This document shows, piece by piece, positions 747-4,247 of a DNA stretch of 4,247 bases; the first letter of the stretch is position 1; every line of letters begins with the position of its first letter. The stretch is from the IMG/VR virus record IMGVR_UViG_2778261674_000006; one strand, given 5' to 3'. This stretch comes from a virus. Lineage: Duplodnaviria; Heunggongvirae; Uroviricota; Caudoviricetes. The notes beneath the pieces are model-generated. The model was not told the DNA's origin. It made no database searches and saw only the letters and a program-made list of their open reading frames with translations. The translations under genes and the position numbers were made by a program.

Positions 747-1388
747 TCAGCGACCAATCACCACAACCTGACCACCATCACCTTCATCTGCCGTGCTGAT
801 CTCCTGAGATACCACCCGCGACCCCACACGCATTTCACCGTACAGAACGGGCAGGACATTGCCCTGGGCAACCATATTATCCAGTGAAGAAAAATAGGTG
901 TTCTGTTTGCCGTTATCCGTTGTCTGTGTGCGAGGGGTTTTGGGTCTAGGGGCCAGCATCTGTGCAACACCGCCAAGCGTCATACTGGCGCCGAGAGAAA
1001 ACAGCAGATTACTCGCCATAATTCCTACCCCCGGCATCCATATAGCAACCGCCATAACAGCCGCCCCCAGCACAGCCTGAAACACACCGCCACTTTTGGC
1101 TCCTGCCAGACGCGGCACGATATGGATCACAGCACCATTTGCCAGCGGTTCATTAAGACGGGCTGATAATTCCGTTTCACCTGTATCACGCCCGGCAATG
1201 CGTACCTGATACCAGCCGTCGCTCAGCTTCTGACGAAACGCCGGGATCTGCATGGCCAGCGCCCGGATGGCTTCGGCCCCCGTTTTCACACGAAGGTCGA
1301 TGCGGCGGCCAAATCGTTGCAAATCCCCGTAAAGGCAGATGCGTGCCATTCCCGGTGACGCCAGAGGGAGTGTGTGCGTCGCTGCCAT
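747..1388 (-). CDS. I: Tail assembly protein I (lambda gpI family), 213 aa
   Basis: ORF-track protein MAATHTLPLASPGMARICLYGDLQRFGRRIDLRVKTGAEAIRAL...NGKQNTYFSSLDNMVAQGNVLPVLYGEMRVGSRVVSQEISTADEGDGGQVVVIGR matches lambda gpI as I recall it. Its start overlaps the 3' end of K by 103 bp, and a ~60-bp spacer precedes J, as I recall for lambda. Confidence 0.88.
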   Translation of the reverse strand: MAATHTLPLASPGMARICLYGDLQRFGRRIDLRVKTGAEAIRALAMQIPAFRQKLSDGWYQVRIAGRDTGETELSARLNEPLANGAVIHIVPRLAGAKSGGVFQAVLGAAVMAVAIWMPGVGIMASNLLFSLGASMTLGGVAQMLAPRPKTPRTQTTDNGKQNTYFSSLDNMVAQGNVLPVLYGEMRVGSRVVSQEISTADEGDGGQVVVIGR

Positions 1389-2023
1389 TTGTCGGTATAC
1401 CTCTCTCGTTTACTCAGTTGTTCAGGAATATGGTGCAGCAGCTCACCGTCGCCGCAGTAAATGGCGGCATGATTCGGCACCGATGAACCAAAGCAGCACA
1501 GCAGCACATCGCCAGGCTGCGCCTCTGTCAGTGGGACACGGTAAAAACCAGTCGCCTCCATATTGTCAAGATAGAGATTCTGACCGTGACGCCACCAGTC
1601 ATCCCCGCGATAAAAATCCGGCATCTCAATCCCCGCCAGATGATAAGCATCCCGGAACAGCGTGTAACAGTCCGTCACCCCGTGCTCAAAGCGCCGCCCG
1701 GTGAGATGCGGCACACAGCGGAACTTGTGAATCGCCCCCCGGCAGACCAGCCACCACGGCAAATCACTCTGCACCTGCAGCCGCCGGTCGGCCTCACTCA
1801 GCCAGGGCAGACCACCGGGGTGACTGTGGACCAGCGCCACAATCTCACCCTGCATCTCTGCCTGCAGCCAGTCCTCCGGAGCCATCCGGAAATACGCCTC
1901 CGGCTCACCGGAGATATTCACGCAGGAAAAATATCTTTCCTCCTCCGGCGTTCTCACCACGAAGCCGCACGACTCCGCTGGCGCACATCGCCGGGCGTGC
2001 GCCAATATATTGCTATAGGGCAT
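1286..2023 (-). CDS. K: Tail assembly protein K (lambda gpK family; MPN/JAMM-like N-terminal region plus NlpC/P60-like C-terminal region), 245 aa from the ATG at 2023
   Basis: ORF-track frame 1286..2062. It contains the JAMM-type motif HSHPGGLPWLSEAD preceded by EMQGE, and Cys/His-containing segments (GVTDCYTLF, HAAIY, HHIPE) typical of NlpC/P60 peptidases. I chose the start at 2023 because AGGAG (2033..2029) sits 5 nt upstream; the track's ATG at 2062 would put a terminator hairpin inside the coding sequence and lacks a ribosome-binding site. An in-frame ATG at 1885 is a third alternative. Confidence 0.82.
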   Translation of the reverse strand: MPYSNILAHARRCAPAESCGFVVRTPEEERYFSCVNISGEPEAYFRMAPEDWLQAEMQGEIVALVHSHPGGLPWLSEADRRLQVQSDLPWWLVCRGAIHKFRCVPHLTGRRFEHGVTDCYTLFRDAYHLAGIEMPDFYRGDDWWRHGQNLYLDNMEATGFYRVPLTEAQPGDVLLCCFGSSVPNHAAIYCGDGELLHHIPEQLSKRERYTDKWQRRTHSLWRHREWHASAFTGICNDLAAASTFV

Positions 2024-2034
2024 GAGAACTCCTG

Positions 2035-2059
2035 ATAAAAAACCCAGCCGAAGCTGGGT
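2035..2059 (-). terminator. Intrinsic terminator downstream of the antirepressor gene and immediately upstream of the K ribosome-binding site
   Basis: Minus-strand reading: ACCCAGC-ttcg-GCTGGGT (2059..2042) followed by TTTTTTAT (2041..2034), then AGGAG and the ATG of K. This is a classic GC stem plus U-tract. Confidence 0.6.
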
Positions 2060-2077
2060 CATTTCGTTGGCAATCTG

Positions 2078-2998
2078 TTAGTAGTGATGCAGTGAAGGAG
2101 GTAATTCTTTGTTCTTAAGTCTTAGCCATGCAGAAAGATTCGTTGGTCCGTCTGGCTCATTAATATCAATATCTCGCGTGTGATTGATTAAAACGTCTCT
2201 CGCCATTCCAATAACATACGAGAACTCATGACCGTAGTCGTAGCATCTGCAGGAATAGTTCGATTGAATTTGCTTTAGCGCCGGATACAGTTCGCGGAAT
2301 AATGCCTGTGAGCGGTTGGCATAATCCCATAACCATACAAGGCTGTTTGCTTCTTTTGCAGAAAGCTCGTTGGTTTTCTTCTCTTGTTTTCCGATGAATT
2401 CGCCTTCAAGTGGAATACGAGCAGCAAGTGACAGTGCTTCGGTAAACTGCTCCTCACTGATTTCTTTGTACGAACATCCAAAATGGGATTTCAGTGACGA
2501 CCACATGGTGATCATCGCCTTCGCCTGTTTTTCTTTTGGCAGAGACTGACCGCGACTCATGACGAGTTGTTTAATAGCTTCCTGCTGTTCAGTGGTGATT
2601 TTCCCCAGCAATGCCTTTTTAGCTTTGCGCGGGTTAATCACATGGCCTTTAGTCCAGTACTCGTAGAGCACATCGTCACACTCTTCCTGATACTGGATTA
2701 CCTTCTCGCGGATTTCAGGGCGGACTTTGTTAGGACTGATGGTTTGGAGCCAACCATTCAGTTTACGCAAAGCAAGGCAAATCATGGTCTGCATACCGCC
2801 AACTGAAGGTATTGCGATTTCCACAATACCTTTAGCAAATCTTTGTTTTAACTTTGTAAACTGTGAAGCCCAATCCATACCCATTCCCTCAACGATAGGT
2901 TTCATTGGGGTGTACGGTTCGCCGTTGTGATTGACGACATAAAGCTCTGCGCCGTGGAATGGCACGTTGATAGTAGATACCGCTGTTGCTATACTCAT
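2078..2998 (-). CDS. ant: Phage antirepressor (Ant-like; the N-terminal region resembles the P22 antirepressor N-terminal domain family), 306 aa from the ATG at 2998
   Basis: ORF-track frame 2078..3052. I chose the start at 2998 (MSIATAVSTINVPFHGAELYVVNHNGEPYTPMKPIVEGMGMDWASQFTKL...) because AAGGAA (3012..3007) lies 8 nt upstream; the 3052 start adds 18 residues that overlap a terminator hairpin. The protein resembles antirepressors from enterobacterial prophages, and the gene sits directly downstream of an Arc-like gene as in P22 immI. Confidence 0.75.
   Translation of the reverse strand: MSIATAVSTINVPFHGAELYVVNHNGEPYTPMKPIVEGMGMDWASQFTKLKQRFAKGIVEIAIPSVGGMQTMICLALRKLNGWLQTISPNKVRPEIREKVIQYQEECDDVLYEYWTKGHVINPRKAKKALLGKITTEQQEAIKQLVMSRGQSLPKEKQAKAMITMWSSLKSHFGCSYKEISEEQFTEALSLAARIPLEGEFIGKQEKKTNELSAKEANSLVWLWDYANRSQALFRELYPALKQIQSNYSCRCYDYGHEFSYVIGMARDVLINHTRDIDINEPDGPTNLSAWLRLKNKELPPSLHHY
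2967..2995 (+). promoter_or_regulatory. Candidate sigma70 promoter for an antisense (sar-like) RNA: TTGATA -17 bp- TATACT
   Basis: -35 TTGATA at 2967..2972, a 17-bp spacer, and -10 TATACT at 2990..2995 on the plus strand, inside the 5' end of ant and pointing away from it. The predicted transcription start is near 3002. Confidence 0.4.
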
Positions 2999-3001
2999 TT
3001 C

Positions 3002-3071
3002 GTTAGTTCCTTGGAAGTTACTGACATAGAAGCCCGATTTGTGTTCGCGCACTGTCGGGCTTCGCTATTTT
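3002..3071 (+). ncRNA. sar: Candidate sar-like cis-antisense small RNA (~70 nt) complementary to the ant ribosome-binding site and the arc-ant spacer
   Basis: It is bounded upstream by the promoter above and downstream by a plus-strand intrinsic terminator: stem GAAGCCCGA (3029..3037) / TCGGGCTTC (3055..3063), a 17-nt loop, then GCTATTTTTAT (T-tract 3066..3071). The transcript would be antisense to the ant Shine-Dalgarno at 3007..3012. As I recall, P22 has a ~70-nt sar RNA in the same position. Confidence 0.35.
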
Positions 3072-3238
3072 TATGTCCTAGCATTCTTCTCTCCAATCAG
3101 TCCGTACACTTTTCTCAATTGATAAATAAGTTCCGTGTTGAACTGTCGACACTCTTTTTCTCCATTTCTTTCAATCGCCTTCCTTACATCCTCTGGGAAA
3201 CGAACCTTGCGTTGATACATGTCTTTTGCTTTTTCCAT
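3071..3238 (-). CDS. arc: Arc-like ribbon-helix-helix transcriptional repressor, 55 aa (not in the supplied ORF track)
   Basis: Manual translation of the minus strand from the ATG at 3238..3236 gives MEKAKDMYQRKVRFPEDVRKAIERNGEKECRQFNTELIYQLRKVYGLIGEKNART, ending at TAA 3073..3071. A strong ribosome-binding site AAGGAG (3249..3244) lies 5 nt upstream. The pattern (basic beta-strand RKVRFPEDV, then N-[ST]-E-[IL]-x-Y-Q) resembles P22 Arc (...FNLRWPREVLDLVRKVAEENGRSVNSEIYQRV...) as I recall it. Confidence 0.65.
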   Translation of the reverse strand: MEKAKDMYQRKVRFPEDVRKAIERNGEKECRQFNTELIYQLRKVYGLIGEKNART

Positions 3239-3255
3239 CTCCACTCCTTAAATAG

Positions 3256-3318
3256 CCTCACTGTGGGGCAATCAAAATTGTCACACCGTGCGTCATTGAA
3301 GTCAACCCCACCGTGGGG
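3256..3318. promoter_or_regulatory. Three candidate operator sites with a CACNGTG core, centred at 3262, 3287 and 3312 (exactly 25 bp apart)
   Basis: Site 1, 3256..3268: CCTCAC-t-GTGGGG (one mismatch). Site 2, 3281..3293: tcaCAC-c-GTGcgt (core only). Site 3, 3306..3318: CCCCAC-c-GTGGGG (perfect 6+1+6 palindrome). Sites 1 and 3 also share the direct repeat CACYGTGGGGCA. Sites 2 and 3 fall in the spacers of the two divergent promoters; site 1 lies between the predicted ant-operon start and its ribosome-binding site. Confidence 0.55.
3277..3305 (-). promoter_or_regulatory. Candidate promoter for the arc-ant operon: TTGACT -17 bp- (TGt)GACAAT, minus strand
   Basis: Minus-strand reading: -35 TTGACT (3305..3300), a 17-bp spacer, and -10 GACAAT (3282..3277) preceded by a TGn extended -10 motif. 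Site 2 lies in the spacer. Confidence 0.4.
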
Positions 3319-3324
3319 CATAAT
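3296..3324 (+). promoter_or_regulatory. Candidate promoter for the mnt-like gene: TTGAAG -17 bp- CATAAT, plus strand
   Basis: -35 TTGAAG (3296..3301), a 17-bp spacer containing the perfect palindrome (site 3), and -10 CATAAT (3319..3324). Its -35 overlaps the -35 of the divergent arc-ant promoter (3300..3305). Confidence 0.45.
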
Positions 3325-3361
3325 TTACTTATTGTGAATTTTTCCTGTTTGGACTAATGGT

Positions 3362-3736
3362 ATGAGTAGAGAAGACCCTCAACTTCGGATTAGGCTTCCT
3401 GTTGAATTAAAAAAAATAATTGAAGCGTCATCAAAACAAAATAATCGTTCTATGAATGCTGAGATTGTCACTCTGCTTGAGTTGGCGATTCGTGTTTGTC
3501 GTGATTTTGGGCCGGAGGATGGTCCTATCGTTCAGCAGTTTAAAGAACAACTAGATGCGATAAACAGAAAATATGATAAAAGCGAGCATGAAAAACTTAT
3601 ACCTCAACTTTTAGAAATCATAGAAAAACAGAAAAAACAAGTAGATAAACTTATTAGCATGGTTGAAAGATCAATTCCTCTTTCAGAGGAATATAAGCAG
3701 AAATATCTTGGTGATGACAACAAAAAACCCACCTGA
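3362..3736 (+). CDS. mnt: Mnt-like ribbon-helix-helix repressor with an extended C-terminal, probably coiled-coil, region; 124 aa
   Basis: ORF-track protein MSREDPQLRIRLPVELKKIIEASSKQNNRSMNAEIVTLLELAI... aligns by eye with P22 Mnt (MARDDPHFNFRMPMEVREKLKFRAEANGRSMNSELLQIVQDAL, from memory): M-x-R-[DE]-DP, R-[ML]-P-x-E-[VL], N-RSMN-[SA]-E-[LI]. The C-terminal ~70 residues are rich in K/E/Q/L with a heptad-like pattern. The gene is divergent from arc-ant. Confidence 0.78.
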   Translation: MSREDPQLRIRLPVELKKIIEASSKQNNRSMNAEIVTLLELAIRVCRDFGPEDGPIVQQFKEQLDAINRKYDKSEHEKLIPQLLEIIEKQKKQVDKLISMVERSIPLSEEYKQKYLGDDNKKPT

Positions 3737-3743
3737 TGGTGGG
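3722..3743 (-). terminator. Hairpin plus T-tract at the convergent L / mnt-like junction; terminator-like only for the minus (L) strand
   Basis: Minus-strand reading: CCCACC-atca-GGTGGG (3743..3728) followed by TTTTTTG (3727..3721), beginning 10 nt after the L stop codon. On the plus strand the hairpin is preceded, not followed, by the A/T run, so it is a poor terminator for the mnt-like transcript. The hairpin overlaps the last mnt-like codons and its stop (3734..3736). Confidence 0.45.
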
Positions 3744-3752
3744 CATAATCCA

Positions 3753-4247
3753 TTACTGCGAAAGCTTGTTAATGGAAAGGAAGCCGCCAAAGTTGCCGAC
3801 GTTATTGCGAAACTTACAGCCACTCAGGCATTTGCTGCATTTATCCTTCGTGATATCGGACGTTGGCTGGTCATATTCATCCGCGACTGCCGGACCGTTA
3901 TAACCGCACTCATCACCGCGATAGGTCCAGGTGCAGGTGTTGGCCAGCATGATACGTCCCGGAAAAACAGCGCCATCTGTTTCCGTCGGCGTGGACAGTA
4001 CAAAAGAGGCACTGACCGCGCTCAGTTCGCTGCACTGCTCGATGCGCCAGCGGCTGATCACCTCCTGCTCCGGATCGGCGTCGCTGTTTCCGTTGACGAA
4101 GTTCACCGCATCCAGAAAACGGGCATAAACCTTACGCCTGACCACCGTTCCGCCGACCAGACTCTGCAGGTCTTCCGCCATCCCGGTGACCATACCGTAC
4201 AGGTTAGAAACCGTCAGCGTGGGGCGCGTACTGGTGCCTTTGCCATT
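3753..4247 (-). CDS. L: Tail tip protein L, C-terminal ~164 aa; the 5' end lies beyond the window end
   Basis: ORF-track protein (from an internal Met) MVTGMAEDLQSLVGGTVVRRKVYARFLDAVNFVNGNSDADPEQEVISRWRIEQCSELS...CSKCLSGCKFRNNVGNFGGFLSINKLSQ matches lambda gpL as I recall it, including the Cys-rich C-terminus. The frame 3753..4193 is given in the track and appears to stay open up to 4247. Confidence 0.85.
   Translation of the reverse strand, partial: NGKGTSTRPTLTVSNLYGMVTGMAEDLQSLVGGTVVRRKVYARFLDAVNFVNGNSDADPEQEVISRWRIEQCSELSAVSASFVLSTPTETDGAVFPGRIMLANTCTWTYRGDECGYNGPAVADEYDQPTSDITKDKCSKCLSGCKFRNNVGNFGGFLSINKLSQ

Follow-up and report, generated by a model that had tools for sequence, protein, structure and literature searches.

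The gene at 3362-3736 of the window, by which we mean the whole stretch of DNA analysed here (4,247 nt), encodes a Mnt-type repressor of an antirepressor cassette. Its RHH head carries a two-helix tail that is longer than the tail of P22 Mnt, is not homologous to it and comes from a narrow, uncharacterised family. The earlier note on this DNA had described a Mnt-type RHH repressor with an unusually long coiled-coil-like tail; the repressor assignment was borne out by matches to Pfam Arc, to 1mnt and in hhalign and by the divergent arc-like/ant operon beside the gene, and the views on the tail fared less evenly, as described below.

The window is a segment of the tail operon of a lambdoid prophage, in which the tail genes lie on the minus strand. 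Both of its flanks matched phages such as mEp332 with 93-96% identity, in two pieces with 59% coverage from which the middle is absent. The GC content of this middle (about 2063-3752) is 37-48%, compared with 54-63% in the flanks, and the low-GC middle is an immI-like cassette that was put in between lambdoid tail genes L and K. It contains a mnt-like gene, an arc-like gene, a sar-like antisense RNA and ant, which is the gene set of P22 immI. The genes and related features of the window are the following:

Tail gene J, minus strand, part only.
747-1388, minus strand, tail gene I.
1286-2062, minus strand, tail gene K, with domains JAB and NlpC/P60.
2078-2998, minus strand, ant antirepressor gene, 306 aa from the ATG at 2998 (RefSeq coordinates).
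3001-3074, plus strand, putative sar-like antisense RNA across the arc/ant junction, with a promoter-like site at 2967-2995.
3071-3244, minus strand, arc-like gene, 57 aa (55 aa with the RefSeq start at 3238).
3362-3736, plus strand, mnt-like gene, an ORF from ATG to TGA with 124 aa plus the stop codon.
3727-3744, minus strand, terminator-like hairpin GCCCACC-ATCA-GGTGGGT, followed by TTTTTTG on the minus strand.
3753 onwards, minus strand, tail gene L.

The ant product contains both antirepressor domains (Pfam P22_AR_N, 1.1e-44; P22_AR_C, 4.3e-29). The arc-like protein matched the PHROG Arc-like repressor family with 5.5e-6, and its Pfam Arc match (E=0.0012, 19.1 bits) is slightly under the cut-off of 20.4. 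For the putative antisense RNA, the promoter scan gave 10/12 consensus matches with a TG, and the RNA is predicted to fold into two hairpins (-28.1 kcal/mol, z=-4.87) at the same position as P22 sar; an Rfam search of the window for sar or other RNA families returned nothing at E<=1. Generally, the arrangement is that of P22 immI, where repressor gene and arc/ant are divergent too, their promoters overlap and the arc/ant junction bears an antisense RNA. The place of insertion differs: the P22 cassette stands before a podovirus tailspike gene, whereas the cassette here is located between the siphovirus tail genes L and K.

The mnt-like gene is adjoined directly by the convergent tail gene L, and there is no adjacent co-directional partner gene. 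The hairpin at 3727-3744 encodes K-K-P-T-stop on the plus strand and forms a conserved cassette end; the junction region of 39-45 bp that contains it (within 3716-3760 of the window) is present in 305 E. coli genomes, and the KKPT ending is common to unrelated repressors in the same cassette slot. P22 Mnt is similar in this respect, since its gene also ends with KK(P/T)T-stop within a hairpin, after a head and a helical C-terminal tail. The L-K position of Stx-converting phages contains the same kind of cassette with another Arc-family protein of 106 aa, and in E. coli EC12 the slot of the mnt-like gene is occupied by a HTH-S24 LexA-family repressor that may cleave itself and respond to SOS.

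RefSeq has an entry at identical coordinates (WP_032258060.1, "Arc family DNA-binding protein"). The Pfam Arc model (PF03869) matched residues 2-40 with 30.6 bits, compared with the cut-off of 20.4, and phmmer aligned residues 3-43 to 1mnt, the head of P22 Mnt (E=0.0015). With a query profile built from 19 relatives, hhalign aligned residues 1-43 only to P22 Mnt (probability 96.8%, E=2.8e-10), with 33% identity over 43 columns. The RHH turn (G/N-R-S-x-N-x-E) reads NNRSMNAE in the mnt-like protein and NGRSMNSE in Mnt, and R11 is aligned with Mnt R10. The AF2 model of the head has a pLDDT of 86-91, and the whole model searched by Foldseek against PDB found Arc, AmrZ and CopG as the best matches (target TM up to 0.81, weak E-values). 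By both profile and fold, the mnt-like protein is a member of the Arc/Mnt RHH family. A plain Mnt orthologue was rejected, since the tetramerisation domain (Mnt 53-83) was compared and is not homologous. A RHH type II antitoxin was rejected too; the FitA-like match (PF22513) reached 18.3 bits, less than its cut-off of 27, and no co-directional toxin gene is located downstream.

After the head, the mnt-like protein continues for 80 residues and P22 Mnt (83 aa) for 40, which agrees with the tail of about 80 residues claimed by the earlier note; the peptide quoted there corresponds to residues 62-104. To describe the tail, we divided the protein as follows:

3362-3493, plus strand, RHH DNA-binding head, residues 1-44, with strand QLRIRLP and helices 14-26 and 31-48.
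3494-3574, plus strand, linker and short helix, residues 45-71, with linker RVCRDFGPEDGP and amphipathic helix 55-70.
3575-3673, plus strand, main amphipathic helix, residues 72-104, with its core at 78-104.
3674-3733, plus strand, tail end, residues 105-124, with the end of the helix and unstructured ...NKKPT, the last codons lying inside the hairpin.

The AF2 model is a monomer predicted from an alignment of 19 sequences (mean pLDDT 71, pTM 0.34). In the tail it contains a Gly/Pro linker (49-54), a helix (55-70), a break (71-72) and a second helix (73-115), while the last 9 residues (about 116-124) are unstructured. The tail pLDDT is moderate (57-83), with 79-83 over residues 81-100, and falls from 57 to 44 at the end. 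A disordered tail had been named in advance as the outcome that would speak against a coiled coil, and the model predicts helices at 55-70 and 73-115 instead. The extended amphipathic coiled coil itself was upheld only in part: the tail is helical and is amphipathic at about 78-104, but it consists of a linker and two helices and not of a single coil of 80 residues. P22 Mnt differs here, for its 40-residue tail has one helix, compared with two helices in 80 residues in the protein of the window.

Relatives hardly vary over the linker and the beginning of the first tail helix, RVCRDFGPEDGPVVQQF, Cys46 included; the nearly invariant columns are R44, V45, C46, F49, P51, G54, V57, Q59, F60 and L64. 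Residues 57-67 form two heptads with V57, F60, L64 and I67 at the a/d positions. The maximum hydrophobic moment of 21 residues in the tail is 2.04, compared with 1.26 +/- 0.25 in shuffles, of which 8 in 5000 reach 2.04, and the strong amphipathicity is confined to about 78-104. Over residues 80-104 there are about 3.5 heptads, with I80, I87, V94 and V101 at a and L83, Q90, L97 and S104 at d, and with further hydrophobic residues at e (L84, I98, I105) and g (L79, I86, M100). A canonical coiled coil was defined by at least about 4 uninterrupted heptads with hydrophobic a and d, and here the run is broken by prolines P81 and P106. An apolar face of this width would point to a helical bundle more readily than to a two-stranded zipper.

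As for periodicity, the tail of P22 Mnt favours 11/3 (1.45) over 7/2 (0.80), whereas the moments of the tail here are equal for 7/2 and 11/3, so that both fit equally well. Nooren et al. are said to have found right-handed coils in the Mnt tetramerisation domain in 1999, which fits its 11/3 periodicity. The core amphipathic helix of about 27 residues is similar in length to the Mnt tetramerisation helix, and the tail exceeds that of Mnt by its conserved linker, first helix and C-terminal extension. Compared with the Salmonella homologue, the head has a dN/dS of 0.05, the tail of 0.27 and residues 72-104 of 0.26; against and between other lineages the tail has 0.17-0.20, which gives a range of 0.17-0.27 across three lineages. 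The tail is under purifying selection.

We compared the tail with several databases. Past residue 43, hhalign found no homology to P22 Mnt, which contradicts the suggestion that the tail is an elongated Mnt tetramerisation helix, and phmmer with the whole protein or the tail gave no match to 1qey, the structure of that domain (31 residues, 53-83, four chains). Nothing significant was found for the tail in Pfam, where RPN6_N, DUF6047 and IMEF_Flp were far under their cut-offs, and no match in PHROG; in PDB, Foldseek matched the RHH head alone and nothing for the tail. By sequence, the tail matched nothing in PDB but designed helical-hairpin repeat proteins (E=0.0057), which were taken as compositional. 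An exhaustive phmmer search of the tail against 1.84 billion representatives found 3 real relatives, all of which are RHH proteins; two giant repetitive proteins with 17 and 4 matched stretches were regarded as composition matches. The tail was found in 18 clusters from E. coli, Salmonella and Citrobacter, only on RHH proteins, and the exact allele of the mnt-like gene occurs in 2 of 5426 complete E. coli genomes.

It turned out that this tail rides on two different RHH heads, as P0018, P0024 and P0122 join the same linker and tail to a DKFTVRFP-type head. Different second helices follow a jointly conserved linker and first helix (P0020-P0024 and P0122). Besides, the tail accompanies three antirepressor cargoes, namely the P22-type Ant here, Bro-N in Salmonella and Bro-N plus ANT in Citrobacter.

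For the whole protein, 247 relatives were obtained from 5.8 billion proteins and the best 120 clusters were compared. Among these 120, the head MSREDPQLRIRLP...NNRSMNAEIV is conserved at 70-80%, and beyond helix B there are nine mutually unrelated tail groups. The shortest protein in these clusters has 77 aa and the longest 194 aa; 79 clusters exceed 124 aa and just 10 stay at or below 90 aa. With a median of 143 aa, the comparison does not agree with the view of the earlier note that the length is unusual. Most numerous is a tail group of 74 clusters (mostly 143-147 aa; phrog_1388, "unknown function"; type C hereafter), whose tail AF2 models with confidence as a globular alpha/beta domain (pLDDT about 90), and Foldseek of a 143-aa type-C relative against PDB gave weak winged-helix-like matches, none of them significant. 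Both tail ends are recombination joints, at the LLELAIRV... linker and at the KKPT hairpin. Long exchangeable tails are the rule among relatives of the mnt-like protein.

The 117-bp intergenic region contains three CAC-N-GTG sites with centres at 3262, 3287 and 3312, exactly 25 bp apart. The 25-bp phased sites to which the earlier note referred are thus real. The sites and promoters are:

3256-3268, operator-like site L, CCTCAC-T-GTGGGG, centre 3262, conserved in four loci.
3277-3305, minus strand, promoter-like site of arc-like/ant, TTGACT, 17-nt spacer, GACAAT, with an upstream TG.
3281-3293, operator-like site M, TCACAC-C-GTGCGT, centre 3287, invariant in four loci.
3296-3324, plus strand, promoter-like site of the mnt-like gene, TTGAAG, 17-nt spacer, CATAAT (9/12, consensus match only).
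3306-3318, operator-like site R, a perfect palindrome CCCCAC-C-GTGGGG, centre 3312.

The two promoter-like sites overlap face to face (3277-3324), as in P22. Site L follows immediately after the -10 of the ant-side promoter, where P22 has Omnt, and site M lies inside the spacer of the same promoter, where P22 has Oarc. Sites L and R are palindromes of 13 bp, and their core CCAC-N-GTGG is the core of P22 Omnt AGGTCCACGGTGGACCT. P22 differs in having one annotated Omnt, compared with three operator-like sites here, one of them in the promoter of the repressor itself; this is site R, whose location inside the spacer of the mnt-side promoter suggests autoregulation. The arc-like (QRKVRFP) and Mnt-like (QLRIRLP) proteins have the same strand pattern Q-x-(R/K)-x-R, and the arc-like protein could share the candidate operator sites with the Mnt-like protein.

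Natural head/tail chimeras indicate which part of the protein the operators follow. The same head with an unrelated 143-aa tail (a Citrobacter locus, L009, and phage TL-2011b) has the same three sites with a spacing of 25-26 bp, and so has the Salmonella locus L010, whose tail is as in the window. At another Citrobacter locus the same tail is joined to a different head, and the repeats there are AAGTCAA-A-TTGACTT, spaced 17 and 26 bp; the Stx-phage version of the cassette has yet other operator repeats. Operators and spacing therefore go with the head and not with the tail, and this natural swap does not support the link between tail length and the 25-bp sites drawn in the earlier note.

We consider it somewhat better than an even chance that the protein works as a tail-joined tetramer of RHH dimers on Omnt-like palindromes, which keeps arc-like/ant off in lysogeny. 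The mnt-like protein would serve an immI-type antirepressor cassette as its maintenance repressor, much as P22 Mnt does: the RHH heads at the N-termini of two chains would pair into a DNA-reading dimer, the tail (helix 55-70 and the amphipathic helix of about 73-104) would join two dimers into a tetramer, and the tetramer would bind the 13-bp palindromes CCCCAC-N-GTGGGG cooperatively. At site L, binding would switch the arc-like/ant promoter off, while binding to site R would probably autoregulate the promoter of the repressor and limit its own synthesis. We infer the oligomeric state, the assignment of the protein to these sites and the repression of ant. The C-terminal helix of P22 Mnt is a tetramerisation domain (PMC3149346), and by analogy the tail here may be an exchangeable self-association module with a function like that of the Mnt helix; the core 78-104 of the main amphipathic helix is proposed as the surface for it. 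The case for self-association is an indirect one: the tail is a predicted helical, amphipathic and selected part of the protein that occurs on RHH heads only. Since it is combined with either of two heads, each with its own operators, and with any of three cargoes, it cannot rely on a particular partner encoded nearby, and an autonomous tail with no need of such a partner is best explained by self-association. Against the tetramer speak the moderate confidence of the AF2 monomer in the tail, the absence of sequence or profile similarity to the Mnt tetramerisation domain, and the short heptad run with its prolines P81 and P106.

The tail could also merely stabilise the RHH dimer as an intradimer four-helix bundle, so that the protein stays dimeric and any half-site cooperativity comes from the heads, as in Arc, which needs no tail. 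The two helices per chain with a short break between them in the AF2 model suit this arrangement, and so do the designed helical-hairpin repeat proteins among the PDB matches; however, keeping the linker and first helix with different second helices suggests two separable units, and a Mnt-type 13-bp palindrome would be expected to require two dimers, so we regard such a bundle as unlikely. Rather improbable, too, is a regulatory or partner-binding tail that times repressor inactivation and the release of Ant, with a protease, a host factor, the antirepressor or a protein of a superinfecting phage as the target. Nine unrelated tails on a nearly invariant head is the pattern expected of input modules, the commonest of them is a confident globular alpha/beta domain and not a coiled coil, and the EC12 slot contains the potentially SOS-responsive HTH-S24 LexA-family repressor. 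Yet the tail type is independent of cargo and of arc-like partner, the co-directional neighbour that would serve as a partner gene is absent, and the tail lacks a match to known ligand- or toxin-binding families.

The exact 25-bp spacing of the three CAC-N-GTG sites and the flexible Gly/Pro linker after the head could be explained by long arms that bridge operator sites 25 or 50 bp apart by looping, with tail length setting the spacing. We find this quite unlikely, because the same sites with 25-26 bp spacing occur with the unrelated 143-aa globular tail, the same tail on another head has sites 17 and 26 bp apart, and at an offset of 25 bp neighbouring sites face almost opposite sides of the helix. 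That mosaic recombination between head and cassette end left behind a functionless or disordered tail would agree with the recombination joints at both tail ends, but it is very improbable in view of dN/dS values of 0.17-0.27 across three lineages, an amphipathicity matched by 8 of 5000 shuffles and predicted helices with pLDDT around 80.

Going further than the tail-joined tetramer that we favour, interchangeable tails might be specificity or input modules and not passive glue, which we think is a speculative and improbable proposal. Many cassettes have one head and operator set in common, and it is usual for E. coli and Salmonella to harbour several lambdoid prophages, which is the basis for the idea of insulation. 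If true, distinct tails would keep co-resident cassette repressors from forming mixed oligomers, or would couple antirepressor release to different signals, as the HTH-S24 LexA-type repressor would for SOS, and the helical tail here would be one rare insulation or induction class of immI-like cassettes.

Antirepressor cassettes can let a prophage or an incoming phage induce other prophages, and as these cassettes sit in E. coli lambdoid and Stx-type prophages, their repressors influence prophage induction. P22 Mnt, the textbook case, is a short form within a family in which longer and very diverse C-terminal modules on a conserved DNA-reading head are usual, and the natural head/tail swaps are ready-made chimeras for probing tail function. 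Our literature search found no paper on long-tailed Mnt homologues or on the L-K cassette, and no description of P22 Mnt as a short member of a family with swappable tails; what it returned of relevance was general remarks about P22 mnt/arc/ant and about the Mnt tetramerisation domain. Such a head-plus-swappable-tail family is unsurprising given phage mosaicism. The tail of the window is a rare uncharacterised helical module that is no surprise in kind, and the repressor gene as such is fairly ordinary.

We also compared the protein with other known proteins. The Stx2a_WGPS8 protein YP_009909332.1 (106 aa, phrog_1287) has the same L-K slot, the NKKPT end with the hairpin, and a RHH head with a helical tail of about 55 residues. 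It differs in its head (36% identity, strand KFNLRFP), in its operator repeats and in its tail, which is not significantly similar to the tail here. Type-C relatives (143-147 aa) have a head about 80% identical, the same three operator sites and an arc-like neighbour, whereas their globular alpha/beta tail is unrelated to the helical tail of the window. AmrZ has a structurally similar RHH head (Foldseek 3qoq, probability 0.99), and its C-terminal domain mediates tetramerisation. There is no sequence relationship between the tails, and AmrZ is a chromosomal global regulator, whereas the mnt-like protein is a phage cassette repressor.

The cassette of mnt-like, arc-like and antirepressor genes is inserted at varied places among the tail-gene clusters of the comparison loci (L006/L007, L008/L009 and L010-L013). 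In Citrobacter it has the tail tube genes on one side and the tape-measure gene on the other; in Salmonella its neighbours are baseplate genes (Baseplate_J, sheath initiator). Its cargo varies as well, including Bro-N, ANT and P22-type Ant, and these varied places and cargo in the compared sequences indicate that the cassette acts like a mobile moron. In the window, one end of it seems to be marked by the following feature:

Window 3719-3752: hairpin CCCACC-TGAT-GGTGGG, the stem of which is made by the final mnt-like codons.

These codons, AAA AAA CCC ACC TGA, encode K K P T and the stop. A TTTTTTG stretch comes after the hairpin on the minus strand, making it terminator-like, and it lies immediately past tail gene L. 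This hairpin, with the ...KKPT ending, also closes unrelated repressors that occupy this slot: the 106-aa protein of Stx phage, the Salmonella and Citrobacter homologues, and an HTH-S24 LexA-family protein of E. coli EC12. In P22, mnt ends with KKTT-stop, within aaaaaaaccacctga. The KKPT/hairpin region would appear to be both a conserved terminus of the cassette and a recombination joint.

In E. coli EC12 (NZ_CP070229.1; comparison locus L014, 2212-3021), an otherwise similar arc-like/antirepressor cassette, which shares the L-K insertion site of the window, has in its repressor slot a protein of 269 aa with a LexA-family annotation. The N-terminus of this protein is of HTH type, and its C-terminal end (...NKKPT) is short and helical. 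The presence of a LexA-family protein in this slot suggests that certain cassettes are wired to SOS. The commonest tail on the mnt-like head belongs to proteins of 143-147 aa (phrog_1388, “unknown function”), represented by P0035 and its relatives (Citrobacter locus L009, 3001-3432). Its predicted structure is a confident globular alpha/beta domain (pLDDT about 90) with these elements:

Residues 55-86: helix
Residues 91-95: strand
Residues 106-122: helix
Residues 136-140: strand

Comparison with PDB gave weak winged-helix-like matches only, and this tail is an uncharacterised domain. In phage TL-2011b (NC_019445.1; locus L003, 2808-3241), which comes from an O103:H25 EHEC strain, a 1-nt insertion past codon 9 makes the mnt-like gene read MSREDPQLR before the frameshift, and the annotated product is just a 113-aa hypothetical protein starting at an internal Met. 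The maintenance repressor may therefore be inactive in this phage.

For the two repressors of the window, we compared the beta strands:

Window 3071-3244 (-): arc-like, QRKVRFP
Window 3362-3400 (+): Mnt-like, QLRIRLP

Both carry Q-x-(R/K)-x-R on alternate strand positions, and a CAC-N-GTG core is present at all three intergenic sites. Given the matching pattern and the common core, the arc-like and Mnt-like proteins may be rivals for these sites or use them in common, unlike Arc and Mnt of P22.

A candidate RNA lies opposite the arc-like/ant junction:

Window 2967-3074 (+): candidate sar-like antisense RNA, also opposite the ant ribosome-binding site

Upstream there is a sequence that strongly resembles a promoter (TTGATA, 17-nt spacer, TATACT with TG; 10/12), and the 74-nt fold contains two hairpins with a T run at the end (-28.1 kcal/mol, z=-4.87). 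The Rfam search returned no match for this candidate (window 2967-3074). At the Salmonella locus L010, one stem pair is changed from A-U to G-C.

What's more, Cys46 of the mnt-like protein (window 3497-3499) belongs to the linker motif RVCRDFGPEDGP and hardly varies across both sub-types of the window protein's tail and both head types.
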